From Chitinophagaceae bacterium (lineage in GTDB: Bacteria > Bacteroidota > Bacteroidia > Chitinophagales > Chitinophagaceae): DNA of 33,508 nt. The number at the start of each line of letters is the position of its first letter. The stretch's first letter is position 1. The DNA lies in assembly GCA_017988595.1 (NCBI GenBank), contig JAGNRR010000001.1, positions 1 through 33,508 on the forward strand. The letters are read 5' to 3'. Shown piece after piece: positions 5,134-30,463 of the stretch. Made by a program: the position numbers and the translations under genes. The notes under the pieces are model-generated. The model had not been told where the DNA came from. It searched no databases and saw only the letters and a list, made by a program, of their open reading frames with translations.

Positions 5134-6453
5134 TTATTTGCAATTTTCTAGAACTAATTTTTCAGCATCATCATAACCTAATTCTATTGCTTTTTTAAAA
5201 TCTAAACAAGCACTTTCTTTTTGATTTAATTTTATTTTACAGATTCCACGATTGTTATATACCACACCCAAATTAGGGTTTAACTCAATTGCTTTATCAA
5301 AATCTTTTATAGCTTCTTGATAATTTTTTAACCCACATTTTGCATTTCCAAGATTAAAATAAGCATCTACATCATTTAGATTTAATTCTATTGATTTAGA
5401 ACAATCTGAAATAGCACCTAAGTAATCTTTTAATTCAACTTTTGCAAACCCACGATTGTTATAAGCTGCTGAAAAATCTGGGTTTAATTCTAATGCTTTA
5501 CTAAAGTCAAATATAGCACCTTGATTATCATTTAATAACACTTTTATTCTACCACGATTATAATAAAAATCTTCATCATTTTGGTTTAAGTCAATTGCTT
5601 TTGTATAATCCTCAATCGCTCCATAATAATCACCCAAATCTTCTTTTGTAATTCCACGATTATAATATACATCAGCCTCTTTTGGATTTATTTCAATCGC
5701 TTTTGTATAATCCTCAATCGCTCCTTTAAAATCTTCTAAATCATCTTTAACACTTCCACGGTTATAATAAGAATCAGCATCTTTAGGATTTATTTCAATT
5801 GCTTTCGTATAATCTTCTATTGCTCCATCAAAATCTTGAAATTCATGTTTTGCATTTCCTCGATTATAAAATGAATTATCTTTCATTGGATTTAATTCTA
5901 TTGCTTTTGTAAAATCTAAAATAGCTCCTTGATAATCTTCTAGTTTATCTTTTGCAACTCCACGATTATTATATATCTCGGCATCCTTTGGATTTAATTC
6001 AATTGCTTTTGTATAATCTTCTATTGCTCCTTTAAAATCTTCTAATTTATCTTTCACATCACCGCGGTTATAATAATTATCAGCATCTTTAGGATTTAAG
6101 TCAATTGCTTTTGTGTAATCTTCTATCGCTCCTTGATAATCTTTAAAATCATCTTTTACCATTCCACGATTATAATATCCTTTTTCATCTTTAGGATTTA
6201 AGTCAATTACTTTAGTAAAATCTTCTATTGCTCCTTGAAAATCTTTAAGATTAGCTTTTGCAATTCCGCGATTAATATATGCATTTATATATTTAGAATT
6301 TTTATTTATTGCTTTTGTAAAATTAGTAATAGCACCTTGATAGTCTTGTTTTTTAAATTTAAGATTTCCTTTTTTATAATAAACTTTACTTAAATTACAA
6401 CTACAAAATAAAATTGAAAATAAAACTAAAACAATAAGGAATATTTTTTTCAT
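5134..6453 (-). CDS. tetratricopeptide-repeat lipoprotein (12 consecutive TPR units)
   Basis: There is a signal peptide with a lipobox-like LFCSC. The motif GAIxD(Y/F)TKAI(E/D)(L/I)NPKDAxxYYNRG recurs 12 times with a 34-aa period. Confidence 0.88.
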   Translation of the reverse strand: MKKIFLIVLVLFSILFCSCNLSKVYYKKGNLKFKKQDYQGAITNFTKAINKNSKYINAYINRGIAKANLKDFQGAIEDFTKVIDLNPKDEKGYYNRGMVKDDFKDYQGAIEDYTKAIDLNPKDADNYYNRGDVKDKLEDFKGAIEDYTKAIELNPKDAEIYNNRGVAKDKLEDYQGAILDFTKAIELNPMKDNSFYNRGNAKHEFQDFDGAIEDYTKAIEINPKDADSYYNRGSVKDDLEDFKGAIEDYTKAIEINPKEADVYYNRGITKEDLGDYYGAIEDYTKAIDLNQNDEDFYYNRGRIKVLLNDNQGAIFDFSKALELNPDFSAAYNNRGFAKVELKDYLGAISDCSKSIELNLNDVDAYFNLGNAKCGLKNYQEAIKDFDKAIELNPNLGVVYNNRGICKIKLNQKESACLDFKKAIELGYDDAEKLVLENCK

Positions 6454-6496: not shown

Positions 6497-8032
6497 TTAA
6501 TTATTAAACTTCACATTATCGAAATCAAAAAAACCAGTGCTAGGGTTTACTTTTATCAATAAACAATGTCGATATTTGGTAGGGAAAATTGAGGTGTAAT
6601 TATATTCTGATTTTGGAATTACATATTTATCGCTTGTAATTATTCCATTTCTATAAATAATATTTCCTAGTGTTTTCTTTTTTGTTGACGAGTTTACATT
6701 CAAATATACATACGAAATGTCATCGCCTACCTTCAAGGGATTTTCGATAAAATAATGCACATCCATCCCCCTATTTTTTTTAATATAAAATGCACCCATC
6801 TGTGGCGAACGAGAATATTTTTTAGGAAGTGCTCTGCCACTCAATTTGCATTTTTCTACATACAATTGTTGCACATCTACTTCTGCATCTATTTCAAACA
6901 TCGCTATATGCGATTTATTGAATGTAATATGATTGTTTCTACTCATTCTTATTTTTGTAATTGTTCGTTGCAGATGTTCGGCAGAAAGCAACCAATTGCC
7001 TGTAGCTAATTTTTTAGCTAAATGAAAATATACATACGAATTGATAATTAATTTTGTGGATTTAGCCACTGAATCTGTTTTTAAGGTTTCAGTTAATTCA
7101 TTATACTTTTCTGAAATTAAATTTCCATTTTCTGAAATTCGATGAATGCAAATGCCATATTTTATTTTGCCATACTTCCCTTTTTTCTTTGTAAATTGAG
7201 ATACAATTTCTATTTGACCTTTTTGAATATCTGCTGCAATAGGAAATATCTCGATATTTTCTTGGGTGTTCAATTTCAATTCTCCTAAAACATTATTACC
7301 ATGCAATGCATTTATTTCTACAACACAATCATATTTATAAAACTTTGCATTGCCGTGTTTATAATACGTTGCTTTTACAAATAATTGTTTATTGGCTCCA
7401 ATAATTTGTGCATTTTCAAATCCATTTTTGCCTTCACTTTGAGTAACAATTAGTTTATTATCTTTTGATAAAAATACCGAAGCATATTTTGGATTGCCTC
7501 CAGAATAAAGTTGAATATTATCTAAAATCCCAACTTGATTTATAGCATAAATAGGTGTGGGTTGAAAATCTGAAAATTTATAATCCACTACAGGTGTTGC
7601 TTTATTCCAAATTTTAAACGTTGTGGGTTGTGTAATTTTCAAACTAATTGTTGTGTCAAAAACCAATCCTGCATCTTGATTTAAAACTATATAGCGTACC
7701 AAATTTTTACTCGACACAAACTTTGACACAAATTGCTCTCCATTAAATACAACAGCTTCAAAATTAAAATTCTTTTCCAGATGCACTTTTTTTTCGCCCA
7801 ATTGATTTAAGTTATCATCGTATATGGCTATGGAATAGCTTGAAGAATCTTTACTAATATTATCCAATTTATACACCATAGCATGACCTACCAAGATATT
7901 ATTTTTTAACATTGGCGAAAGAAACGTATGGTCTTTATCAAAAAACATTCCATTATTCTGTGCAGAAATTGATAGACAACATGTAAATAAAATGGCGAAA
8001 AGAAAAATAAATTTTTTATTTATTATACTCAT
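6497..8032 (-). CDS. secreted hypothetical protein (511 aa)
   Basis: Long ORF with an N-terminal signal peptide (FIFLFAILFTCCLSISAQ). It overlaps the upstream M48 gene by 17 nt, which indicates an operon. I recognise no family. Confidence 0.6.
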   Translation of the reverse strand: MSIINKKFIFLFAILFTCCLSISAQNNGMFFDKDHTFLSPMLKNNILVGHAMVYKLDNISKDSSSYSIAIYDDNLNQLGEKKVHLEKNFNFEAVVFNGEQFVSKFVSSKNLVRYIVLNQDAGLVFDTTISLKITQPTTFKIWNKATPVVDYKFSDFQPTPIYAINQVGILDNIQLYSGGNPKYASVFLSKDNKLIVTQSEGKNGFENAQIIGANKQLFVKATYYKHGNAKFYKYDCVVEINALHGNNVLGELKLNTQENIEIFPIAADIQKGQIEIVSQFTKKKGKYGKIKYGICIHRISENGNLISEKYNELTETLKTDSVAKSTKLIINSYVYFHLAKKLATGNWLLSAEHLQRTITKIRMSRNNHITFNKSHIAMFEIDAEVDVQQLYVEKCKLSGRALPKKYSRSPQMGAFYIKKNRGMDVHYFIENPLKVGDDISYVYLNVNSSTKKKTLGNIIYRNGIITSDKYVIPKSEYNYTSIFPTKYRHCLLIKVNPSTGFFDFDNVKFNN

Positions 8033-9410
8033 TATATAGGCTTTTAAGGTTTGGATAAGAAGCTAATTTTGATTGAAAATTATTTAAAAAATTTTTGACG
8101 ATTAGCTCAAATTCTTTTGTTGTTGTTCGATCTATAATTCTCAATAAATCATTGTAGCCATTTGCCAAATCTTCAGATTCAATAGGAATGTGCTTTTGCA
8201 CTTCATGTTTATTAATTGCTTTATATAATAAATCTAAATTTTCGGCTACATTTCTATATAAAAAATTATAATTTGGATATTTGGGAATAATCTTCAACGA
8301 ATAAAAAACCAAGGCGCTGTATCTTTTATTCAATTTATACAATTCTAATTCTTCCATATCACTTGCCAATAAAAGTGTATCAAATGCATTTTTATCTATC
8401 AAAAATTCTTTTATATTTTGAGCTTCATATTTCAATCCAGACAATTTTTGTTTGATTAATGCAGTTCTGTTTTTCATATCAGGATGCGTTTTTAAAGAAT
8501 CCTCATCAAAATCAAACAATTTAGAATCTCCAAAAGTCAATGGTGTATTGTCTTTAAAAATCCATTCATCTTTTATTTTATCATTCTTATTTGCAAAATA
8601 AGTATTGTAATTTATTTCTGTAGTATCAACATCCGCATTTTCTAACGACATAAAAAATCGTTCAATACTTACCATTTCATAATTTGTATTTTTGATTATT
8701 TCCACTGCAAAAGAATCTGCTGCCGATTCAAATTGTCGGCTATATTTTGCAAAATCATATTTAGCATTTTTTATAAATTGTATAGACTTATCCAATTTAT
8801 TAAATTTTGCTCTGTTTATATCTCTTATTTCTTTTTTAAATTCTTTGTTTTTGATTTTTTCTTGATGTGCAATAAAATTTTGTTCCACATGAGATAATAA
8901 TTTATGTGATAATTCATGTGCAATTACAAAAGCAAGTTGCGCTTCATTCTTTGTAAGTTTAAATAAACCCATGTTTACATACAACCGATTATCGCCCATA
9001 TTAAAGGCATTTGGCGATGTATAACGTGTTAAAACAACTTCAAATTTTTCAGTTATTCCATTTGATTTCAAAATGGTATCCAATATTTTATTCAAATAAT
9101 TTACCAGTCTAGGCTCGGCTATAAACTGTTTACTTTTAGAAGCTTCGGAATGAGAAAGGTATAATTTATACAAATAATCTTTATATAATTTATTAATCTT
9201 ATCATCTTTACTATAAAATTTATATTTATTTATTTTAGTATTATAAAACTTAGTTTTATTTTTTGAATACGATTTTGTGCTGTATTTTAATGGAATATAT
9301 TCATCTGCTTGCTGGGCAAAAGAATTAAATATGCCTAAAAAATTTATTGCAAAAAATAAAACAATTATTCTCGTTAAATGTCGATTTCGATTACCATCCA
9401 TATTTATCAT
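8016..9410 (-). CDS. M48-like zinc metallopeptidase, secreted or membrane-anchored
   Basis: It has an HExxH motif in an M48-like context (FVIAHELSHKLLSH) and an N-terminal hydrophobic signal/anchor. It overlaps both neighbouring genes. Confidence 0.7.
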   Translation of the reverse strand: MINMDGNRNRHLTRIIVLFFAINFLGIFNSFAQQADEYIPLKYSTKSYSKNKTKFYNTKINKYKFYSKDDKINKLYKDYLYKLYLSHSEASKSKQFIAEPRLVNYLNKILDTILKSNGITEKFEVVLTRYTSPNAFNMGDNRLYVNMGLFKLTKNEAQLAFVIAHELSHKLLSHVEQNFIAHQEKIKNKEFKKEIRDINRAKFNKLDKSIQFIKNAKYDFAKYSRQFESAADSFAVEIIKNTNYEMVSIERFFMSLENADVDTTEINYNTYFANKNDKIKDEWIFKDNTPLTFGDSKLFDFDEDSLKTHPDMKNRTALIKQKLSGLKYEAQNIKEFLIDKNAFDTLLLASDMEELELYKLNKRYSALVFYSLKIIPKYPNYNFLYRNVAENLDLLYKAINKHEVQKHIPIESEDLANGYNDLLRIIDRTTTKEFELIVKNFLNNFQSKLASYPNLKSLYNEYNK

Positions 9411-10095
9411 TTATTCTTCTGTCTTTATGTTTTAAATTATAAAAAATGCCTGCACTTAAATTTCCATTAAAAGTGCCAGCTTCTAAACTAATTCCTATTT
9501 TGTTTGTGATTAAAAATTTTGCGCCTAATCCCACTTCAAAAACAACTGGGAAAACTGTATTCCTTTTTAATTGAAAATAAGCACCATAACTAAAAGAACT
9601 TTTTTCCATTTCATCTAACGATTCACTCATAGTTATAGAAGCAAATTTTATTCCGCCATTTAAAAATCCATATAAATTTAATTTTGGGCTTGCTCTAAAA
9701 TATCGAACCAATCTAGCTTTGAAAGCCATTTGACTTCCATTACTTTTAAAACTTTTCGAAATGGTATCATGTAGTTTATACGAATCATTAAACTTAAAAG
9801 AAAAATATTCAATACTGGCTCCTATTGCTGTATAATCATTTGCAGCATATTCAAAAACAAGATTTATTGGCGGCAATGCTTTAATATCATATTCCAAATT
9901 TGATTCATAATTATCCAATAAATAATCATTATTAAGTTGGCTATTCATAATTCGTTTATAATTATTCGAAAATCCAACTTGCACACCAAATTGCATATTG
10001 CCCTCAGCCATCATGTGTTCTTGGGAAAAAATTGGTGTTGAAGATATTAAAAAACATATTAAAAAACACAGGAATAGTTTTAGTTTTTGAAACAT
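9391..10095 (-). CDS. small outer-membrane beta-barrel (porin-family) protein
   Basis: Signal peptide (LFLCFLICFLISSTPIFSQ), alternating hydrophobic strands and a C-terminal aromatic-rich end (SAGIFYNL...). The size is typical of 8-10-strand barrels. Confidence 0.55.
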   Translation of the reverse strand: MFQKLKLFLCFLICFLISSTPIFSQEHMMAEGNMQFGVQVGFSNNYKRIMNSQLNNDYLLDNYESNLEYDIKALPPINLVFEYAANDYTAIGASIEYFSFKFNDSYKLHDTISKSFKSNGSQMAFKARLVRYFRASPKLNLYGFLNGGIKFASITMSESLDEMEKSSFSYGAYFQLKRNTVFPVVFEVGLGAKFLITNKIGISLEAGTFNGNLSAGIFYNLKHKDRRINDKYGW

Positions 10096-10156
10096 AAAAA
10101 GGGTTAAGGCATTAAATATAAAAAACTAATTTTTTAAAAAAAAATTTATTTAAATA

Positions 10157-14731: not shown

Positions 14732-14757
14732 CGGAAGAACCCTCCAAATAACTGTTA

Positions 14758-14925
14758 GTTGCTGTTTCAACAACATTTATTTCTGTTTCAATAACATTTG
14801 TTGCTGTTTCAACAATATTTGTTGCTATCGCACTCACATTAGTTGCTATTGCACTCAAATTAGTTGCTCTCGCAGTCACATTAGTTGCTCTCGCACAAAG
14901 ATTAGTTGCTGTCGCACAAAATAAA
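14758..14925. repeat. eight head-to-tail 21-bp iterons (GTTGCT at 14758, [TTTCT variant at 14779], 14800, 14821, 14842, 14863, 14884, 14905)
   Basis: The period is exactly 21 bp. There are two subfamilies: GTTGCTGTTTCAACAAYATTT (units 1-3) and GTTGCT(A/C/G)TCGCA(C/G)(T/A)(C/A)A(C/A/G)ATTA (units 4-7), with unit 8 degenerate at its end (AAATAAA). Confidence 0.92.
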
Positions 14926-14961
14926 TCGTGTCTCTGTCTTGAGAAATTGCATTTATGTGCT

Positions 14962-14969
14962 TATTTTTG
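14962..14969 (+). promoter_or_regulatory. candidate Bacteroidota -7 box (TATTTTTG) for the HTH gene
   Basis: It matches the TAnnTTTG consensus 26 nt upstream of ATG 14995, and a TTG lies about 15 nt further upstream (14947-14949). This is a motif match only. Confidence 0.4.
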
Positions 14970-14994
14970 GGTACTAAACCATAATTTATTAGAT

Positions 14995-15336
14995 ATGTTT
15001 AGTCTAAACCTAAAACAATTGTTGCTCGAAAAGGGAATAGTGAAACCTCACGCTTGGCTGTGCAAGCAAGGCATACAAAGCCCTATGGCGCATAAGCTAT
15101 TGAACAACAAATACCACAAATTGGATTTTCGTATCTTTAATATCCTTTGCACCAAAGCGCATTGCACCCCAAATGACATCTTAACTTGGACACCCGATGC
15201 ACCCTTGCCCGATATGAGCCAACATCCCTTGCAAGCCCTTGCCCCAAAAACGCCCCTGGACATTAGCAAAAAATTGCTTACCCTAAGTGCCGAAAAATTG
15301 GAAGCCGTGAATAAATTGATTGATGGAAGTGAATAA
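14995..15336 (+). CDS. Cro/C1-type (XRE family, HTH_26-like) helix-turn-helix protein
   Basis: MFSLNLKQLLLEKGIVKPHAWLCKQGIQSPMAHKLLNN...NILCTKAHCTPNDILTW fits the short Cro/C1 HTH pattern. I prefer ATG 14995 to the track's TTG 14947. GC is about 52% (31/60 and 32/60 on two lines I counted), against about 28% in the flanks. Confidence 0.8.
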   Translation: MFSLNLKQLLLEKGIVKPHAWLCKQGIQSPMAHKLLNNKYHKLDFRIFNILCTKAHCTPNDILTWTPDAPLPDMSQHPLQALAPKTPLDISKKLLTLSAEKLEAVNKLIDGSE

Positions 15337-16650: not shown

Positions 16651-19398
16651 TTACAAATATGTTGCGGTGTAGCTTTCTTTTACTTTTTTCAACCCTTCCA
16701 CTTCGCCAGCATATAAAAGTTGTCCGCCCTGTTCGCCACCTTCTTTTCCTAAATCAATTACCCAGTCGGCATTTTTAATAATATCCATATTATGTTCGAT
16801 AACAATTATCGAATGTCCTTGATCTATCAAGGCTTCAAAAGATTGTAATAATTTTTGAATATCATGAAAATGCAAGCCTGTTGTAGGCTCATCAAAAATG
16901 AAAAGTATATTTTTATTGGCATAAGATTTATCTATAAAAGAAGCCAATTTTACGCGCTGTGCTTCGCCACCGCTAAGTGTACTGCTGCTTTGCCCCAAAG
17001 CCACGTAGCCCAATCCCACATCTGCCAAGGTTTGCAATTTAGTTTTTATTTTTGTTTCCTTTTCAAAAAAAACGATGGCATCATCTACAGACAATTCTAA
17101 TATATCGGCAATATTTTTTTCTTTATACTTTACTTCCAGCAATTCTTCTTTAAATTTTTTTCCTTTACAGCTTTCACAAAGCAAATGCACATCGGCAAGA
17201 AATTGCATTTCTACAGTTATCGAACCTTCGCCTTTACACTCATCGCACCTGCCGCCATCTACATTAAACGAAAAATGACCCGATTTATACCCTCGAATTT
17301 TTGCTAATTTTTGCGCAGCAAATAAATTTCGTATTTCATCATAGGCTTTTACATAAGTTACTGGATTGGACCTTGAGGATCGACCAATTGGATTTTGATC
17401 CACCATTTCAATGTTTTTTATAGCTTTGACATCGCCTTTAAGTTCATCAAACAGTCCTGGTTTTACTTCATATTCACCTAATGCATTTTTTATAGCTGGA
17501 TATAAAAGTTGTTTTATCAAGGTTGTTTTTCCACTTCCACTAACGCCTGTAACTGCACAAATCATATTCAACGGAAATTCTACATCAATGTTTTTTAAAT
17601 TATGCTGTCGGCAACCCAATAACGAAATGCTGTTTACTTTTTTTATTTTTTTATTTTTCAAAAAAACTTTTTTTGCGCCGCTTAAGTATTGCGCTGTTAA
17701 ACTTTTTTTGTTTTTAAGAATGGTTTTGTAATCGCCAATTGCAACAACTTCTCCCCCATTTTTTCCAGCATAAACGCCCATGTCTATTATATAATCGGCG
17801 TGTTTCATAATCATTTCATCATGCTCTACAAGTACAATTGTATTGCCCAAATTTTTTAATTGTTGCAATACTTCTATCAATTTTGCAGTATCTCGAGAAT
17901 GTAAACCAATGCTGGGTTCATCCAAAATATAAAGGCTTTCACTAAGATTAGAACCTAAAATTCTGGTCAATTGCAAACGCTGACTTTCGCCACCGCTCAA
18001 GGTATTTGCACTTCGTGATAGTGTTAAATAATTTAAACCCACCATCATCAAGGTGTTCAATCGATTATTGATTTCTAAAATCAATCGTTCACTAATTTTT
18101 TTTGAAGTAACATCAAGTTTCAATGCATTCATCCAAACTTGCAATTTGTCAATGGGCATATCAAACAACGAAGCAATTGTAGTATTTTCAATTTTTACAT
18201 AGAGCGCTTCTTTTCTTAATTTGGTGCCATTGCACGAAGAACATTTTGTTTTTCCTCGATATCGAGCTTGCATAATTCGATATTGAATTTTATATAAATT
18301 TTGATTTACCATATTAAAAAAATCATCAATTCCGCCGTTGCCTTGCCATAAGAGTTGTGTTTCTTTTTCGGATAAATTTTTTATTGGTTTGTGAATGGGA
18401 AAAGAATTGTTTTTTGCGTTTCTAATAAATTCGTGTTTCCATTCGCTCATCTTATCGCCTTTCCAGCAAGCCACCGCATCGTCATAAATACTAAGGTTGG
18501 TGTTTGGAATAATAAGCTCTGGCGAAATGCCAATCATTTGTCCATAACCTTCGCATTGCGGACAAGCACCATAAGAATTGTTTGATGAAAAAAGATTTGC
18601 CGAAGGCTGATCAAATAACATCCCATCTTGCTCAAATCGATTGCAAAAATGATGCATCGTATTTTCTATTTCTAAAAAAGCATCGCCATTGGTTTCATCA
18701 AAAGCAAGCTGAATGCTATCTGCCAAACGATGCAATTCATCTTCTTCAAAATTTTTGCTCACCCAACGGTCTATTAAAATATAATCATCTTCATCGAAAC
18801 TGATTTTTTTAGTTGCAAGCAATTCTTCGATATTGCTGTAGGATTTATTTTTCAAATTATACAAGCGTGTAAAACCTTGTTGCAGAATTTCTTCGAGAAA
18901 ATAAGTTGGGTTTTTGTGTGCATGTTTTGGAAGTGGAATCAGCAATAATACTTTTTGTTTTTCGGGAAGCGAAGTGATAAAATTAATGACATCGCTCACA
19001 GTATCTTTTTTTACTTCTTTGCCGCTAATGGGCGAAAATGTTTTTCCGATTTTGGCAAAAAGCAAGCGCAAATAATCGTTGATTTCGGTAATAGACCCCA
19101 CAGAAGAACGTGTAGAACTGCTATTTACTTTTTGCTCAATGGCAATAGCAGGGCAAAGTCCTTCGATGCTGTCCACCAAAGGTTTGTTCATGTTTTTTAC
19201 AAATTGGCGCGCATAAGAACTCAGGCTTTCCATATAGCGCCGTTGTCCTTCGGCAAATAAGGTATCCATAGTTAAGGACGATTTTCCGCTGCCACTAACC
19301 CCAGTGATGACCACAAATTTTCCGATAGGAATATCGACACTTACATTTTTAAGGTTATGAAGTTTAGCCCCTTTTATTTTTATAACATTTTCTGACAT
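16651..19398 (-). CDS. uvrA: excinuclease ABC subunit A
   Basis: Two ABC ATPase modules (GVSGSGKSSL twice, LSGGE signatures twice) and the UvrA zinc modules (CPQCEGYG; GGRCDECKGEG...CESCKGKKF). The N-terminus IKIKGAKLHNLKN...FAEGQRRYMESLSSYARQF is canonical. Confidence 0.93.
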   Translation of the reverse strand: MSENVIKIKGAKLHNLKNVSVDIPIGKFVVITGVSGSGKSSLTMDTLFAEGQRRYMESLSSYARQFVKNMNKPLVDSIEGLCPAIAIEQKVNSSSTRSSVGSITEINDYLRLLFAKIGKTFSPISGKEVKKDTVSDVINFITSLPEKQKVLLLIPLPKHAHKNPTYFLEEILQQGFTRLYNLKNKSYSNIEELLATKKISFDEDDYILIDRWVSKNFEEDELHRLADSIQLAFDETNGDAFLEIENTMHHFCNRFEQDGMLFDQPSANLFSSNNSYGACPQCEGYGQMIGISPELIIPNTNLSIYDDAVACWKGDKMSEWKHEFIRNAKNNSFPIHKPIKNLSEKETQLLWQGNGGIDDFFNMVNQNLYKIQYRIMQARYRGKTKCSSCNGTKLRKEALYVKIENTTIASLFDMPIDKLQVWMNALKLDVTSKKISERLILEINNRLNTLMMVGLNYLTLSRSANTLSGGESQRLQLTRILGSNLSESLYILDEPSIGLHSRDTAKLIEVLQQLKNLGNTIVLVEHDEMIMKHADYIIDMGVYAGKNGGEVVAIGDYKTILKNKKSLTAQYLSGAKKVFLKNKKIKKVNSISLLGCRQHNLKNIDVEFPLNMICAVTGVSGSGKTTLIKQLLYPAIKNALGEYEVKPGLFDELKGDVKAIKNIEMVDQNPIGRSSRSNPVTYVKAYDEIRNLFAAQKLAKIRGYKSGHFSFNVDGGRCDECKGEGSITVEMQFLADVHLLCESCKGKKFKEELLEVKYKEKNIADILELSVDDAIVFFEKETKIKTKLQTLADVGLGYVALGQSSSTLSGGEAQRVKLASFIDKSYANKNILFIFDEPTTGLHFHDIQKLLQSFEALIDQGHSIIVIEHNMDIIKNADWVIDLGKEGGEQGGQLLYAGEVEGLKKVKESYTATYL

Positions 19399-19469
19399 CG
19401 AAAGCGCAAGTTACAACTGTTTGGGAAAATGAAAAGACATGAAATACTGATATTAAATTGAGAAAAAAA

Positions 19470-19536
19470 TTCACCTGGGTTGGTGTTTTCAATAACGAAC
19501 TTTTACTACTTGGGTTCGTATGTCATAAGACCAACG
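19470..19536 (+). repeat. intergenic element copy 1 (67-nt core), between the 256-aa gene and uvrA
   Basis: TTCACCTGGGTTGGTGTTTTCAATAACGAACTTTTACTACTTGGGTTCGTATGTCATAAGACCAACG. It matches copy 3 at 56/67 positions by hand alignment. Confidence 0.9.
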
Positions 19537-19597
19537 AGTACGGAAAGCTATACAGCCCACATTGTTTTTTGGTTTTTAGTGGTGGATGACAGTAGTA

Positions 19598-20368
19598 TTA
19601 ATCTTGCAATAAATAGAACCTTTTGAATTTCATTTCATCTTTCCAATCTCTGTTAGTCGATGTGGTTTTTTCTGAAGAGATAATTTCTAAAGTATCTTTG
19701 TTTATTTTTCCTTTAATTAAAACAAATACCTTTTCACCCTTTGGAATTTCTACCATTTCAAAATCCGTAATATTAGGTATCGTACCAAGTTTTTGATTTA
19801 TAATATTACTTTCTGTTATAAAATCAAATCTTTTACCTCTGGAGTTTAAAAGGTATTCCACTCTGATTGAAGCGAGTTTGTCATGGTTGGGAATATTAGC
19901 AAATGGAATTTCAATTGAATTACTCATTGATAGCTTCATGTTTACATCAATGTCCTTAATTTGAGAATCAAAATCATAACAGTATGTAATTTTAACATCT
20001 CGGTTTAGCAATTCAGAAGATTGGTCTGTTCGAAATCTTATAATATAAATATCCTGAGAATCTTTTTTAAAATGTAATCTTACATCACTTTCAAATACAT
20101 CATACTCATGTTTAAAAAAATAAAACCCTTTTTTCTTTGTCCATGTTCCTTCATAACTCTTCCAACTTCTACAGCCATAATCAGGTCTGCTCCAAAATTC
20201 AAATGTTGAATTCAGATTTAATGTAATTTCATTAATAGTTGGTTCATAAATCGACTTTATATTTGTAGAATCATAATAGGAATTGGAAATATTGATATAA
20301 GTTTGAGATTTGTCTTGAGCAAAAAGAAGATTGCTTATTAAAAGTAGAAATGCGATTTTGTAAGTCAT
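19598..20368 (-). CDS. secreted hypothetical protein (256 aa), cassette gene
   Basis: ORF with a signal peptide (IAFLLLISNLLFAQ). I recognise no family. It is flanked by element copies 1 and 2. Confidence 0.6.
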   Translation of the reverse strand: MTYKIAFLLLISNLLFAQDKSQTYINISNSYYDSTNIKSIYEPTINEITLNLNSTFEFWSRPDYGCRSWKSYEGTWTKKKGFYFFKHEYDVFESDVRLHFKKDSQDIYIIRFRTDQSSELLNRDVKITYCYDFDSQIKDIDVNMKLSMSNSIEIPFANIPNHDKLASIRVEYLLNSRGKRFDFITESNIINQKLGTIPNITDFEMVEIPKGEKVFVLIKGKINKDTLEIISSEKTTSTNRDWKDEMKFKRFYLLQD

Positions 20369-20385
20369 ATTTTGTGTTCCTCAAA

Positions 20386-20509
20386 AATTACTGCTAACTC
20401 CCAAATATAAGTATTTTTACATTATTTTCTTCAACAATTTTATTCACCTACCTTACTGTTTTCACCAATGAACTTTTACAACGTGGGTTCGTAGGTTATA
20501 AGACCAACG
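20386..20509 (+). repeat. intergenic element copy 2 (124 nt; core 20443-20509)
   Basis: It matches copy 3 at 109/124 positions by hand alignment and has the same length and orientation. Confidence 0.9.
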
Positions 20510-20527
20510 TTAACAAAGGCCTAGTTA

Positions 20528-21556
20528 TTATTTATCTTTATTGTTTATTAATTGAATTAATGTTTCTTTACTCGGCAAAACTGTCAAATATTTACTTGCA
20601 AAAATTTGTGTATTATTTTCTGGCAAAGTGAATTCTACTACTGCTTCGCTTTTGTTTTGGCATAAAATGATTCCTATTGTTTTATTTTCTTCTTCTAGTT
20701 TTATCTGCCTGTCATAATAGTTGACATACATTTGCATTTGTCCAATATCTTGGTGTTTTAGTTCTCCAATTTTTAAGTCAATAAGTACAAAGCATTTTAA
20801 AATTCTGTTGTAAAACACTAAATCTACTCTAAAATGTTTATCGTCAAAACTGATTCTATTTTGTCTAGCCACAAACGTAAATCCATTTCCTAATTCTAAT
20901 AAAAAGTGTTCTAACTTATCAATTAGTTTTTGTTCTAAATCGCTTTCAGAATAGTTGGAATTTTCAGGTAAGCCAATGAACTCTAAAATATAAGGGTCTT
21001 TTATTGCATCTTGTGGTTTTTCTAAGGTTTGCCCATTTGTAGAAAGTTGTAAAATTTCATTTTTGTCTTTGCTTAATGCCAAACGAGTATAAAGGGCTGA
21101 GTCATATTGTCGGTTCAGTTCTCGTAAACTCCAATTGTTCTTATATGATTCTATTTCATAAAATTTTCTTTCCTGTTCGTCATCAATTCTCATCAACTTC
21201 ATATAATGCGACCAACTTAAATTGAATTCGTCAGACAGTGTCTTACTTTTTTTAAATTCCGCAGACAGTGTCTGCGTTTTTGAATAAACAGAATAAAATT
21301 GACGAATTTGTTCTAGATTTCTTTGTGAAAACCCTTTTCCAAATTCTTGTGTTAATCGTTCAGAAAGCGATTTTATTATTTGTTTACCATAATCAGCTCT
21401 TTCTTTACCGTTTTGTTCTTCTTCTATTATCATTCTTCCGATTTCAAAATAGGTCAAAACCATCGTGTGATTTACGGTCTGCAATACTTTAGTTCTTGCA
21501 GAAATTAGTAATTCTGATATTTTGGTTGCTAACTCATTTGAAACAATTTTATTCAT
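20528..21556 (-). CDS. DUF1016/YhcG-family PD-(D/E)XK nuclease-like protein, cassette gene
   Basis: N-terminal helical region ...YFEIGRMIIEEEQNGKERADYGKQIIKSLSERLTQEFGKGFSQRNLEQIRQFY is typical of DUF1016. The C-terminal RVDLVFY...VLIDLKIGEL supplies a D...(D/E)xK nuclease motif. ATG 21556 (MNKIVSNE) is preferred over the track start at 21604. Confidence 0.8.
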   Translation of the reverse strand: MNKIVSNELATKISELLISARTKVLQTVNHTMVLTYFEIGRMIIEEEQNGKERADYGKQIIKSLSERLTQEFGKGFSQRNLEQIRQFYSVYSKTQTLSAEFKKSKTLSDEFNLSWSHYMKLMRIDDEQERKFYEIESYKNNWSLRELNRQYDSALYTRLALSKDKNEILQLSTNGQTLEKPQDAIKDPYILEFIGLPENSNYSESDLEQKLIDKLEHFLLELGNGFTFVARQNRISFDDKHFRVDLVFYNRILKCFVLIDLKIGELKHQDIGQMQMYVNYYDRQIKLEEENKTIGIILCQNKSEAVVEFTLPENNTQIFASKYLTVLPSKETLIQLINNKDK

Positions 21557-21630
21557 TATTTTTATTTCTAAATCTTGAACAAATATAGCAAATTTTAAAG
21601 TCATTTTGATTCAGCAATTTGGTATGGTCA

Positions 21631-21754
21631 AATTACTCTTAACTCCAAAAAATACGAAAGTTTACATTATTTTCTTCTACAATTTTATTCACCTACCTTA
21701 CTGTTTTCACCAATGAACTTTTACTACTTGGGCTCGTAAGTCATAAGACCAATG
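21631..21754 (+). repeat. intergenic element copy 3 (124 nt; core 21688-21754)
   Basis: See copies 1 and 2. It lies between the transglutaminase-like gene and the DUF1016 gene. Confidence 0.9.
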
Positions 21755-21774
21755 TGGGCAGAAAAGTATAATCC

Positions 21775-22701
21775 TTAAAATAGATTCAACACCCCATAAA
21801 CTTCTGGGCTGAGGAACGGACCACCAGGATAATTTTTGGTGTAATCCATATTTATCCAATAATCATTATTGTTATCGGTGTGGCTTTTTATAGGCTCATT
21901 TTTAATTTCATCCTTAAATAATTCTTGACGGATGAGGTAATTAATATTATCCATATCATATTGATTTCCAATAAATAATTCAGGATAAAGATGCCCTTTG
22001 GTTCTTATCAATCTAGCTTTTCCGCCAATGGCTTTGATGCATGCCGCCATCAAAATGGCATGGTCGTCGCAATCGCCCGAAAGCAATTTTGTAGATTCGC
22101 TGGCTTTGGCATAATATTCATTGGATTTTGGATCGCTCACATAATTCCAATTGGTATTTATTTTTTTAAACACCGCAAAACATTGAATCAACATTCGATA
22201 TTGATGATTTTTTTGGATATCATGAAAATTTTCCAAGGTGGCTTGCAATGCAAATTGGCGCACATCGGGATGATTAAAATTTACGGCATGAGTAATTTTG
22301 GTGGTGTTTGGGAAAATTGGAAATTTTGAAAACAACACATTTTCTTTATCCACCTCATAAAGCATGGCATAAACAATGGCTCTATAATCATTTGCCAAGG
22401 ACACAAAACCATAAGTATTTTTTATTGAGCCATAAGCTAAAAAAAGTATCACCGCCATCAAAGCGCCAAGTGCAAATGGTTTTATGGAAATCAATAACAA
22501 CTCTATCATCATCCATAAAAAAAGAAATAATAAAATTTCATCTAAGTGATAAGGAAAATGCACATTGGGAATGATACTATGAAAAAGCATAAACAATGGC
22601 AATAACAAAAAAACACTTAACAAATGAAGCACCCAATCGGCAAAACTAATTTTCCGTTGGGGTTCAATTACTTTTAATAATGTATTTTTTGCTTTGTTCA
22701 A
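21775..22701 (-). CDS. membrane-anchored transglutaminase-like cysteine protease-fold protein
   Basis: Three N-terminal hydrophobic helices are followed by a Cys-His-Asp arrangement typical of the transglutaminase-like core (SGDCDDHAILMAACIKAIG ... TKGHLYPE ... WINMD). Confidence 0.7.
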   Translation of the reverse strand: MNKAKNTLLKVIEPQRKISFADWVLHLLSVFLLLPLFMLFHSIIPNVHFPYHLDEILLFLFLWMMIELLLISIKPFALGALMAVILFLAYGSIKNTYGFVSLANDYRAIVYAMLYEVDKENVLFSKFPIFPNTTKITHAVNFNHPDVRQFALQATLENFHDIQKNHQYRMLIQCFAVFKKINTNWNYVSDPKSNEYYAKASESTKLLSGDCDDHAILMAACIKAIGGKARLIRTKGHLYPELFIGNQYDMDNINYLIRQELFKDEIKNEPIKSHTDNNNDYWINMDYTKNYPGGPFLSPEVYGVLNLF

Positions 22702-27507: not shown

Positions 27508-30463
27508 TTAATTATGTTTAATTGTAATTTTTTGAGAATACGTTTTTCCATCTTGATTTATTTTTATAAAATAAGTTCCGTTAGAAAATGTTTTTGTATT
27601 TATAGAAATTGGAATATTTTTTATAGCATTATTTTCATTTTTATAAACCATTCTTCCAACAGCATCTAGTAGCTCGTATGATAGTTTGCCACTTTGTGGT
27701 GCAATAATTTGCAAATAATCGTTAACTGGATTTGGATATACCATTGGTTTATATTCAATTACATTTTTTACGCTTACTGCAGTTTCTCCAATATCTAAAA
27801 TTTCAAGTGCATCTAGCTGCTTCAACTAAAGCACCACCGCCGCCACCAACTGCGCTATCAATTGCTACAAATTTTACCTTTACGCTATTTCCTGCTCCTG
27901 GGAAAAGTTCAATCGTTGCTCTTCTCCAGCTTACATCTGGTTTATAAGTTTTTTCAACCGAAATCCAACTTGCTCCATTATCATAACTAATATCTACTTG
28001 CCACAAATCCTTTTCGGCATTTGAACCTTGACTATTTGTAAACCAACGATAATAACTTAAAAATGGACGTTGATAACCAGCTATATTTATTGCATCAGAA
28101 ACCAATGTTGTTCTTCCGCCATCTACATCTTGGCTTCCAACTGATGTTGTTGACGAATTAGCATTTGCAGTAATTGCACATTTTCCGCCTCCATCAACAT
28201 CATATTTAGTTTGAACAATTGTAGTTGTGTCTGAAATATTTTGATAAGAAGGAACAGGAACATCTATAATCCATAAACCACGTGGCGCTAAATCGCCAGT
28301 ATAATTACCTACTTGCCATCCTGTTAAAGTGTTTGGATCAGAGAAAAATTCTTGCCATTTTGGTGTATAACCTACAAATAAATAATGTGGTAAATTTCTT
28401 TTGTTTGTAGCGCCAACAAATTTTGAAAACACTGGATTGATAACACTATACGTATTTAAATTATCATAAGCTGCAAAATAATATTCATACACTTTGCCTG
28501 CAGTTGTGTTTGGAAAATTTGCATTGTAAATATTTGTACTTCCTACTTGATTTAACACTAATGAATCTAAAGAAGAAGTTCCTTTTTCTCTATAAAACAT
28601 TTTAATTGCACCTAAAAATGCAGGAAAATCAACTGTAGCTTCAACTTCAATAGGAACTGTAATGGCTGAATTTACAACACCCGGTTCACTATGATCAAGT
28701 TCTGTATTACTCAACAAATAAATACCGTGTTTTGCAAATGCAGTAACTATGGCATTAAAATTTGGCGTTCCATTATTTAGATTTGCATCAGTATCATCAT
28801 ATTGTAATGCATCTATTAAAATATCATAATAAACTTGACCTTCTGCACCATCAGGTCCGTTTGCTAATCCCGAATGAGATAAACCAAATAAAGTACTCAT
28901 CATTGATGAACTACCCATATTTATTCTAGTATCCCACCATGCTCCAGCAATTATTTCACCATCGGCATGCACTTCGCCTTGAATATCTTGAGGATAAACT
29001 TTTGGTGCCAAATCATATCTTCTAATCGTAGCATTTTGATTTGTAGAAGAATAACCTAATCCAATTATAGGATTATCATTAATTGAAAAAGCCCAAGTAT
29101 CTGAATAACCTTCGCCCATTCCACCATTATCAAAACTTTGTCCTTGTGATTGCCAAAATACATTTGTAATGCCATGTCCATATTCATGATACATTACGTC
29201 GCCAATCAATGAAAATTGATTACAACCATTTGATGCGGTATAAAAATTAATACTTGTTCCATTATAAAACGCATTGCAATTTCCATCAGTTCGATCTACT
29301 CTAGCAAGTAAAGGATTATCCATATTTGTAAATGCAGCTGGTAATTTTGTTTTCATAAAATCGTGAACAACATCTACATGATAATAACATGTAAAATGTG
29401 CAACAGTAGCATTTGGTGCTGTAACTGGATATGTAAATGTAGAATTTGCTACACTAACATTTGCATTTGTTGAAGCAGCTGTTGTTCCATTTTGAGTTGT
29501 AACCACTTTCACCCAACGGCCTTCTAATGAAATTGTAGAATTTGCTGTTGCGCCAGAAGTAACTACAGTTCCATTTGCATTCGTGTAAAAAGTAGTTGCA
29601 TTATCTACAACTTTTAAATTGCGCAAAGGCAATAAAATTGGTGCAACATAAGGTCCTGTCAAATGCACACTTGCATTAATATCATAAGAAATTCGTTTCA
29701 CTTTATTGAAGCGATACAAAATTTTTCCATCTTCTGCAGAAACATAGCATGTATAATCGCCTTCCATTTCTTTAGTATCTTGTGTTTTTATTTTTACTTC
29801 ATAAACTTTTTTGTAATTGTATTTTCCATCTTCTGGTAATGCAATTATTTTCATATCTATAGAAACTTTTGACTCTAAAATTGGCGTAACTAGTTGTTGT
29901 GCTGCAAAATTCATCGCTTCTACTGCAGTAATATTAACTGGCAAATTTTCTGGAATTTGAGTATGTGCATCTAAGCCAACCATTGCAATTTTTAGGTCTT
30001 GTGTAAAACGAACCGAAACTCTACTAAACAAAATATTTAAACCTTGATGTTGTTGTTTAAAATCTACATTAATATATTTTCCGTCATTGCTATTTCTGGT
30101 TACCACTAAATTTTGAAGCGGAATATTAAACCCTGCAAATTCGCTAGCTATAAACGCTTTTGCTTTTTCAACTGGATTTGAACCTCCACCATTAAAAACA
30201 ATTGGTTCGCCAAAAGCACGGTGTGGCAATTTTGAATAATAATTAAATTTTGCTCCCCAACTTGGATGTTGTTGTTGAAAATTTATCCAAGCTTGTTGTT
30301 TATACAAATGCTTTGTACTTAAACCTTTTAATACATCCGCTGCATCATTATATGGTGTAATATTAGCATTTATATCTTTTTGGTTTAATATATTTTCCTC
30401 GTGAGCTTTTACTACAAAAGTTGAGAAAATAAATAGCATTAATGTTGAAATGTATTTGTACAT
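27508..30463 (-). pseudogene. M36 (fungalysin)-like zinc metallopeptidase, a T9SS cargo, with a frameshift separating it from its T9SS C-terminal domain
   Basis: The 886-aa ORF carries VMYHEYGHGITN...GGMGEGYSDTWA (HExxH plus an EGxSD-type third-ligand region) and a signal peptide. The overlapping 105-aa ORF in another frame (27508-27825) is a clear T9SS tail (VYPNPVNDYLQI...NGTYFIKINQDGKTYSQKITIKHN). The frame switch must lie within 27803-27826. Confidence 0.82.

Follow-up and report, generated by a model that had tools for sequence, protein, structure and literature searches.

In a stretch of 33,508 nt from a Chitinophagaceae bacterium (contig JAGNRR010000001.1, assembly GCA_017988595.1, positions 1-33,508; hereafter the window), the DNA separating a transglutaminase-like gene from uvrA is a hypervariable insertion site, in which a direct repeat of ~70-125 nt, here called R, marks the boundaries of the inserts. 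This follows from comparison with the only close relative (L023; contig CBCYYQ010000023.1, assembly GCA_965187115.1; 22.7 kb compared), where the same flanks enclose different inserts and homology with the window breaks at the outer R copies. We propose, with a probability of about 0.5, that R is both the boundary and the recombination site of a lineage-specific, integron-like gene array served by an unlinked recombinase, and that an extension of R is a Bacteroidota-type promoter. The evidence on R comes from these two genomes, both contigs being from metagenome-type assemblies; misassembly as the source of the repeat architecture is unlikely, since the architecture is the same in two assemblies made independently, and the copies diverge from one another by 10-25%. 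The lineage is barely sampled, as evident from uvrA, which is 95% identical between the window and L023 and has its next-best match in the searched collections at 69%.

On the minus strand, the window reads in the order transglutaminase-like gene (21775-22701; the conserved left flank, recognised from open reading frame (ORF) and Pfam analysis and the L023 comparison), R copy 3 (c3), a DUF1016/YhcG gene, c2, a gene for a 256-residue protein, c1 and uvrA (16651-19398; the conserved right flank). The 67-nt R core occupies 21688-21754 in c3 (nhmmer E = 5.6e-22), 20443-20509 in c2 (found by repeat search and nhmmer) and 19470-19536 in c1, each time on the minus strand. A direct-repeat search returned these as a three-copy family (19469-19552, 20442-20525 and 21687-21770), together with a long-form family of 88% identity (20385-20510 versus 21630-21755). 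Core identities were 56/67 for c1 and c3, 55/67 for c1 and c2 and 61/67 for c2 and c3, and the 124-nt form of c2 and c3 (20386-20509 versus 21631-21754) was identical at 109 of 124 positions. A preliminary description of the window had reported three same-strand copies filling three consecutive minus-strand spacers, with counts of 56/67 and 109/124; repeat search and gene order bear this out, and both counts were reproduced exactly. A degenerate pattern of 51 nt matched at c1, c2 and c3 alone, with 0.00 matches expected from 100 dinucleotide-preserving shuffles. The copies are 973 and 1245 nt apart and start ~20-60 nt past the preceding stop codons, c3 being the first boundary repeat, ~20 nt past the stop of the transglutaminase-like gene. 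Both window cassettes are co-oriented.

Comparison with L023 revealed collinearity at 82-92% nucleotide identity on both sides of the interval and wholly different insert content within it. The four L023 inserts comprise ParE/ParD, a helix-turn-helix (HTH)-like gene of 140 codons, a 272-residue unknown and a secreted-protein gene. Its four R copies are Ra (~6249-6320), directly after the transglutaminase-like stop codon, the partial copy Rb (~7029-7089), Rc (7969-8030), with an extension as in c2 and c3, and Rd (8911-8979), after which comes the uvrA leader. An AT-rich non-coding stretch of 445 nt (L023:7524-7968) separates the HTH gene from Rc and holds an internal direct repeat, AAATCTATTAAAAGGTATTTTT, at ~7738 and ~7884. 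The ParE, ParD and HTH genes, accounting for two of the four inserts, are on the opposite strand, so that Ra precedes the reversed ParE/ParD and Rb the reversed HTH gene; all four copies are oriented like uvrA, whatever the direction of the adjacent gene. The window thus has three copies around two inserts, and L023 has four copies and one leader duplication around four inserts. An nhmmer profile of the seven copies retrieved those seven alone (E 1e-15 to 1e-22) from the 33.5 kb of the window and the 22.7 kb of L023, with nothing further below E = 0.85 in these 56 kb. The preliminary description had suspected an insertion hot spot of stacked single-gene modules and had proposed comparing the interval in a relative. 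The hot spot is supported by the different inserts of L023, by the acquisition of the DUF1016 gene detailed below and by the low G+C content of the inserts (0.28-0.29 versus 0.33-0.37 in the flanking genes). It had also considered that relatives might carry the same two genes without the repeats, or that R might be a dispersed repeat; L023 has other inserts and four more copies, and R was found at no other place within the 56 kb.

Alignment of the seven copies revealed the fixed blocks TTATGAC, AGTAAAAGTT, TG-AAAA and AGG.GAA, and an 11-nt centre, AGTAAAAGTTC, which is identical at 10-11 of 11 positions in six of the seven copies; over the whole repeat, most pairs are 65-85% identical. The left halves of c2 and c3 agree at 27/36 positions and their right halves at 35/35 (Fisher p = 0.002), the perfect identity spanning 46 nt and reaching into the shared extension. 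The uvrA-linked copies c1 and Rd are mutual best matches in the right half (29/35), which does not apply to the left half (25/36). R is thus tied on its right to the DNA downstream of it, be it extension and cassette or the uvrA leader, and on its left to the DNA upstream. A crossover near the conserved centre would yield such a mosaic pattern.

The extension of R is located at 20386-20442 in c2, ahead of the 256-residue protein gene, and at 21637-21687 in c3. As claimed in the preliminary description, -7-like boxes are present, namely TATATTTG in c2 (20409-20402) and TATTTTTT in c3 (21654-21647), followed by GTTAGCA (20398-20392) and GTTAAGA (21643-21637), respectively. Promoters of Bacteroidota consist of a -33 TTG and a -7 TAnnTTTG element. 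A TAnnTTTG-type box was found 4-5 nt before the G↓TT junction (arrow) in c2, c3, Rc and Rb, the last with a shortened extension, that is, in four of the five copies not attached to uvrA; the extension of Ra is more divergent, has no -7 box and ends in GGGAG↓TT. Cassette-specific DNA starts with the GTT boxes GTTAAGA (c3), GTTAGCA (c2) and GTTGGGT (Rc), of which GTTGGGT only fits GTTRRRY in full and the other two in part; in the window spacers, the GTT box lies ~125-140 nt from the stop codon. Copies c1 and Rd lack a GTT box because the uvrA leader follows them; the right half of c1 runs into the native leader (19399-19469, conserved with L023) with no extension. By analogy with these promoters, the -7 box would place a transcription start near the first base of the cassette, making the extension a candidate promoter. 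The portable promoter suggested in the preliminary description therefore fits the 57-nt extension, as a sequence-based prediction.

The first window cassette carries the DUF1016/YhcG gene, classified by PADLOC as candidate defence gene PDC-S02 (E = 4e-146). The gene as called extends from 20528 to 21604 on the minus strand, and most likely starts at the ATG at 21556 instead of 21604, because the database form has 342 residues and close homologues have 332-333; a TATATTTG box of its own is present at 21587-21580. The protein is 88-92% identical to proteins from Chryseobacterium, Saprospiraceae, Pseudarcicella and Arcicella, and uvrA is at most 69% identical, at the protein level, outside the lineage. 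Being far closer to other genera than uvrA is, the module was clearly acquired horizontally and recently. DNA homology to other genera delimits it to 20512-21643 (minus strand), the identity to Chryseobacterium and integron copies being 84-85% and extending from 21643 or 21636 to 20517 or 20512. The shared DNA begins at GTTAAGA, directly after the -7-like box of the extension, and ends 3-8 nt before the c2 core.

In four other loci (L034, L035, L036 and L042), this module takes the form of a textbook integron cassette running from G↓TTAGGC-GTAATTTGACC... to ...GCCTAAC, after which follows an attC hairpin of ~135 nt that closes with the next G↓TT box. The window module starts with TTAAGA versus TTAGGC in the integrons, and ends with ...GCCTTTGTTAAC versus ...GCCTAAC, TGTTAAC at 20515-20509 being at the site of the integron R'' box GCCTAAC. 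L034 (contig JAHZTJ010002615.1; 11 kb compared) belongs to the same assembly (GCA_020051655.1) as a contig covering the window (JAHZTJ010004133.1), and may to that extent, by assembly only, come from the same organism. It contains an integron-type array (L034:1661-9296) with five attC hairpins of ~135 nt and cassettes for a 335-residue unknown, CD-NTase plus patatin (CBASS-type), DUF1016, HXXEE plus GrpB, and an AAA_15 ATPase.

In Chryseobacterium (L028-L032), the DUF1016 module resides in single-gene arrays whose spacers are direct repeats of ~440 nt (L028:4480-9500, L030:900-6408, L029:4580-6470); we know of no published description of these spacers. Each starts with a hairpin of ~60 nt and holds an antisense ORF whose similarity to the N-terminal part of the DUF772 transposase domain is weak and below threshold (E = 0.011). 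Two true attC sites and an IS200-like Y1 transposase gene are present in the same array of L029. Homology of R to these spacers or to the 5' half of attC was not significant in profile searches (E = 0.4-0.9), leaving a similarity by eye of CGTTGGTCTT to CGTTGGGCTT unsupported. The DUF1016 gene also occurs singly, in eight loci (L037-L041, L044-L046) that lack both R and attC and have a shorter stretch of shared DNA. In two of them (L037:3460-4703 and L038:718-1961), a gene for a protein 88% identical to that of the window, with no R or attC nearby, sits between ABC2_membrane (wzm-type) and ABC_tran/Wzt_C (wzt-type) genes of a polysaccharide ABC-transporter operon. Evidently, the gene moves by more than one route. 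Plasmid and phage collections gave distant matches only to its ORF.

R is not an attC site, because it forms no hairpin, its cassettes fail the R'/R'' rule and an attC covariance model does not match it. As DNA, the R copies fold at -4.6, -9.1 and -11.1 kcal/mol, with z values of +1.75 to -0.87, no better than shuffles. End-to-end pairing of the window and L023 spacers gave z values of +0.6 to -1.0, versus -2.8 to -5.1 for the five attC sites of L034. A covariance model trained on six attC sites, taken from L034 and L042, recovered all sites in L034, L035, L036 and L042, and found the two untrained Chryseobacterium sites in L029 at 104-106 bits; this model, a narrow one, gave nothing at E <= 10 in the window and L023, and did not match the ~440-nt Chryseobacterium spacers. 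In integrons, the first bases of a cassette are complementary to the R'' box of that same cassette, a hallmark of cassettes that circularise. Among the forward cassettes, three in the window and L023 together, this complementarity was 5-6/9 (P >= 0.6), compared with 8-9/9 (P <= 0.003) in the L034 controls and 8/9 (P = 0.007) for a Chryseobacterium cassette encoding 446 residues. The attC-like character considered in the preliminary description consequently does not hold in the structural sense. What is attC-type is the spacing, with at least two same-strand sites within 4 kb of each other, each following an ORF and of attC size (57-141 nt).

According to the proposed mechanism, cassettes would be gained and lost through site-specific recombination inside R, close to its centre, by a recombinase whose gene lies elsewhere in the genome. 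The downstream gene would be accompanied by the right half of R and by the ~55-nt extension, with its presumed Bacteroidota-type -7 box and an end in a GTT(A/G)(A/G)-type box, and the upstream gene by the left half, so that a forward cassette would read R-right, promoter, gene, R-left. The array exchanges genes with integrons, the DUF1016 module having the same ends as a true integron cassette, and its cargo (the candidate defence gene DUF1016, and ParDE in L023) is typical of cassette arrays. It is not a classical integron array, because R is a non-hairpin site. A bolder version, which we regard as rather doubtful, is that R and its extension represent an undescribed class of cassette site, double-stranded, non-hairpin and ~125 nt long, with a built-in Bacteroidota promoter and a terminal GTT box, in a capture system analogous to integrons with an unlinked recombinase.

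Several findings weigh against this proposal. The shared DUF1016 homology runs from GTTAAGA to just before the c2 core, so R and its extension are outside the unit common to several genera, and R is not demonstrably co-travelling between lineages. Neither the window nor the 22.7 kb of L023 contains a recombinase gene, no intI adjoins the array, and no recombinase domain was detected in Pfam scans of 18 window ORFs and the L023 inserts. The insert nearest uvrA in L023 is bounded not by R but by a direct duplication of ~225 bp (~93% identical) comprising the uvrA leader and codons 1-52, around a secreted-protein insert of 715 bp (8911-10155). The upstream duplicate continues in frame into the insert, so that a chimeric ORF of 273 codons (9052-9873) results, and the whole looks like a homology-anchored insertion, not a site-specific one. 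The mosaic contrast is significant for one pair alone, c2 and c3, the other pairwise contrasts not being so individually, and gene conversion could be an alternative source of the pattern. In the two genomes, neither an empty site with a single R nor a circular intermediate nor a shared cassette at another array position was seen, and movement of R-bounded units was for this reason not directly observed.

The L023 leader duplication is the main reason for giving some weight to homology-driven accretion without any dedicated recombinase, the main rival to our proposal although unlikely. Foreign DNA, for example from transformation, would be anchored on the native spacer, either by RecA-dependent single crossover of circles or by homology-facilitated illegitimate recombination, and the R copies would be leftover duplications. 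The ~225-bp duplication with its chimeric ORF, duplicated lengths that vary by event (67, 124 and 225 nt), a perfect c2/c3 stretch of 46 nt, which is enough for RecA-type exchange, and the lack of a nearby recombinase all conform with this. However, most R pairs, at their level of identity, would be a poor substrate for homologous recombination, and the patterned conservation of centre and blocks suggests a protein-binding constraint rather than neutral decay. Random endpoints would also not place the same extension end, ...TTTGG(G)AG↓TT, before unrelated genes in five of seven copies (Ra being more divergent), and all copies have one orientation even beside reversed genes. Quite unlikely in our judgement is a decayed or remodelled integron array of the type known as CALIN, clusters of attC sites without an integrase (Cury et al. 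2016, PMC4889954), in which R and its extension would derive from attC sites that no longer form a hairpin, either as a fossil or as an array occasionally processed by a distant integrase. R with its extension does occupy the attC position in one orientation and at attC size (~125-140 nt from stop codon to GTT box), the terminal boxes GTTAAGA, GTTAGCA and GTTGGGT are GTTRRRY-like, and the DUF1016 module has TTAAGA and ...GCCTTTGTTAAC where integrons have TTAGGC and ...GCCTAAC. In addition, L029 combines true attC sites and non-attC spacers in one array, and a real integron-type array with the same DUF1016 cassette is present on another contig of the same assembly (L034). Against this stand the pairing z values, the folds equal to shuffles, the silent attC model and the failing R''/first-base rule (5-6/9 versus 8-9/9, P <= 0.007, in controls). 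Furthermore, the window and L023, with flanks only 85-91% identical, share no cassette, which implies recent turnover and not a fossil array, and the seven R copies are still alike, as would not be expected of attC sites decaying independently.

That R is a duplicated regulatory module only, a promoter or operator copied before new genes with no role in insertion, we consider improbable. The TAnnTTTG-type boxes just upstream of cassette DNA would agree with this, as would the short conserved blocks of R as possible protein-binding sites. Yet Ra and Rb precede reversed genes, Rb being only partial, the DUF1016 module already has its own TATATTTG box, and R sits exactly where homology between the strains breaks. 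R contains CGA(A/G)C-N13-GTTC(G/A), and was also considered as an SOS operator; this was rejected, as neither of the published Bacteroidetes LexA motifs (GGA-N5-TCC and CTAA-N5-TTAG; PMC8565304) was seen on reading R. Least probable is a structured cis-acting RNA (leader, element of a 3' untranslated region or small RNA gene) or a dispersed repeat of the repetitive extragenic palindromic (REP) or miniature inverted-repeat transposable element (MITE) type, an impression that arises at first sight from a conserved intergenic repeat beside genes and from the ability of c1, alone among the copies, to form nested stems. A search of Rfam, as envisaged in the preliminary description, gave no match at gathering thresholds and only noise (E > 4) at a relaxed threshold. 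ARAGORN found no tRNA or tmRNA gene in the window, so R is not a fragment of one. Single-copy RNA folds did not differ from shuffles (z -0.96 to +1.19), RNAalifold on the seven copies gave -0.26 kcal/mol on one strand and zero pairs on the other, and there was neither consensus structure nor covariation among the seven copies on either strand. The structured-RNA version, one of the possibilities raised earlier, is thus effectively refuted. A MITE is disfavoured by the absence of a copy outside the hot spot in 56 kb and of terminal or other inverted repeats of R; the earlier remark that no integrase or terminal inverted repeats are visible agrees with the Pfam scans and the repeat search.

Integrons are the standard model of single-gene capture and are poorly characterised in Bacteroidota, where rAID-1 is, to our knowledge, the one integron-like system described. 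In its workings, the R locus comes closest to integron and CALIN arrays. Common features are mostly single-gene, promoter-poor modules of 0.7-1.2 kb, same-orientation repeats of ~60-140 nt that are alike within an array, strain-variable content, toxin-antitoxin and phage-defence cargo, a GTT-type junction box and a DUF1016 module that is literally common to true integron arrays, with the same ends. In contrast to these arrays, R lacks an imperfect-palindrome hairpin, the R''/L''/L'/R' organisation and R''/first-base complementarity, the repeat carries a predicted promoter for each cassette, and the locus is enclosed by two genes of housekeeping type, with neither intI nor attI in the vicinity.

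Within Bacteroidota, the locus is most like rAID-1 of Bacteroidales, which is defined by a XerD-like tyrosine recombinase at the array head and by orphan immunity genes (Ross et al. 2019, bioRxiv 10.1101/471110; PMC12247911). The genes of rAID-1 arrays are co-oriented, short and low in G+C, with conserved intergenic motifs; the authors call them "reminiscent of integrons", the mechanism of array formation being unknown (10.1101/471110; PMC12247911). Compared by description only, both systems have short, low-G+C, mostly co-oriented genes and a conserved repetitive intergenic sequence, but the R locus has no recombinase, is flanked by the transglutaminase-like gene and uvrA, and carries a nuclease, ParDE, an HTH protein and unknowns as cargo. 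The locus is assigned to neither system, because R does not have the structure by which attC is defined, and no recombinase, the defining gene of rAID-1, was found.

Two further comparisons can be made. The CIMEs of Streptococcus are cis-mobilizable, integrase-less elements that accrete in tandem at one att site. Successive inserts at one site, direct att-type repeats, the lack of an own integrase and dependence in trans are points of likeness; CIMEs, however, are decayed multi-kb islands at the 3' end of a gene, whereas the R locus holds single genes and a long repeat of 67-125 nt with a predicted promoter, at a site upstream of uvrA. The Chryseobacterium arrays resemble the R locus in the DUF1016 module, the single-gene layout, the lineage-specific long direct repeats and the lack of an attC-model match. 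They differ in that the one cassette tested obeys the R'/R'' rule (8/9, P = 0.007), and in that their spacers begin with a hairpin, hold an antisense ORF and have no significant homology to R.

The locus is of interest as a compact, strain-variable array with non-attC repeats, situated between core genes with no recombinase nearby, and because a phage-defence-candidate cassette is common to it and, with identical ends, to true integron arrays of other genera. Were R an active recombination site, integron-type gene pools would feed other capture systems, captured genes would have a simple route to expression in a phylum with promoters of a non-proteobacterial type, and the ~70-nt R would be a concrete substrate for finding the recombinase. 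Under the new-site-class version, each captured gene would receive its own promoter from R and the gene pool would be common with true integrons. The DUF1016 module, whose ends are identical in the two types of array, would then be the first example of such sharing, and the ~440-nt Chryseobacterium spacers would be a second variant of the same idea. If the R copies were duplication scars only, this would be an ordinary flexible island with an unusual footprint.

R was also searched for in public collections. The pattern GTAAAAGTTCNTTNNTGAAAACA matched 17 loci in the genome and 3 in the viral collections, all unrelated to R; it also encodes the Walker-A peptide GKSSL(L/M)KT, and most matches were Walker-A coding sequences in ATPase genes. 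A metagenome scan with TTATRACN{15,16}GTAAAAGTTCNNNNNTGAAAA yielded a single match, of chance-like character (L025; nhmmer E = 0.85), whereas viral sequences yielded none, and plasmid and phage collections gave nothing. An origin of R as a decayed Walker-A fragment of uvrA was rejected, as local alignment of each copy with uvrA was no better than for shuffles. Likewise, R is not a small antisense ORF (plus strand, ...FTNELLLLGLV.HKTN...): the frame contains stops in Ra and Rb and a frameshift in Rc, consistent start codons are missing, and substitutions, counted by hand, are even over the codon positions.

The second window cassette consists of the gene for the 256-residue protein of unknown function (19598-20368, minus strand; G+C 0.278), which has a signal-peptide-like N terminus. 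Its homologues are at most 40-46% identical and all from other Bacteroidota, and their gene contexts (L026, L027) were uninformative. Neither this protein nor the 272-residue and 213-residue proteins had a family match in the library searches run.

Beyond the uvrA interval, the window and L023 differ at further places. L023 has four extra genes (L023:16189-20021, corresponding to window:12363-12365) for proteins of 422 residues, an HTH_3 regulator, 399 residues and 265 residues, located between the genes of a pyridine-nucleotide disulphide oxidoreductase and an AsnC-type regulator; no R copy is present there, and the HTH domain was the only Pfam match. A segment of ~770 bp (window:14626-15394) is absent from L023 and constitutes a second strain-variable spot, in which an HTH_26 gene (14947-15336, plus strand) lies beside ~8 tandem 21-nt repeats (14734-14917; unit roughly GCGAnAGCAACTAATnTGAnT) that resemble an iteron- or operator-like array. 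An M36 peptidase of 886 residues and a Por secretion tail are separate ORFs in the window (27508-30463) and apparently one gene of 985 codons in L023; a frameshift or a sequencing error could account for the split. A gene of the acetyl-CoA synthetase type (window:2525-4456) is similarly split into parts of 483 residues with AMP-binding and 127 residues with AMP-binding_C, which could reflect a frameshift, a pseudogene or a sequencing error. Finally, a TPR protein encoded at window:5134-6453 contains ten tandem repeats of 102 nt (34 residues) with 64-74% DNA identity.

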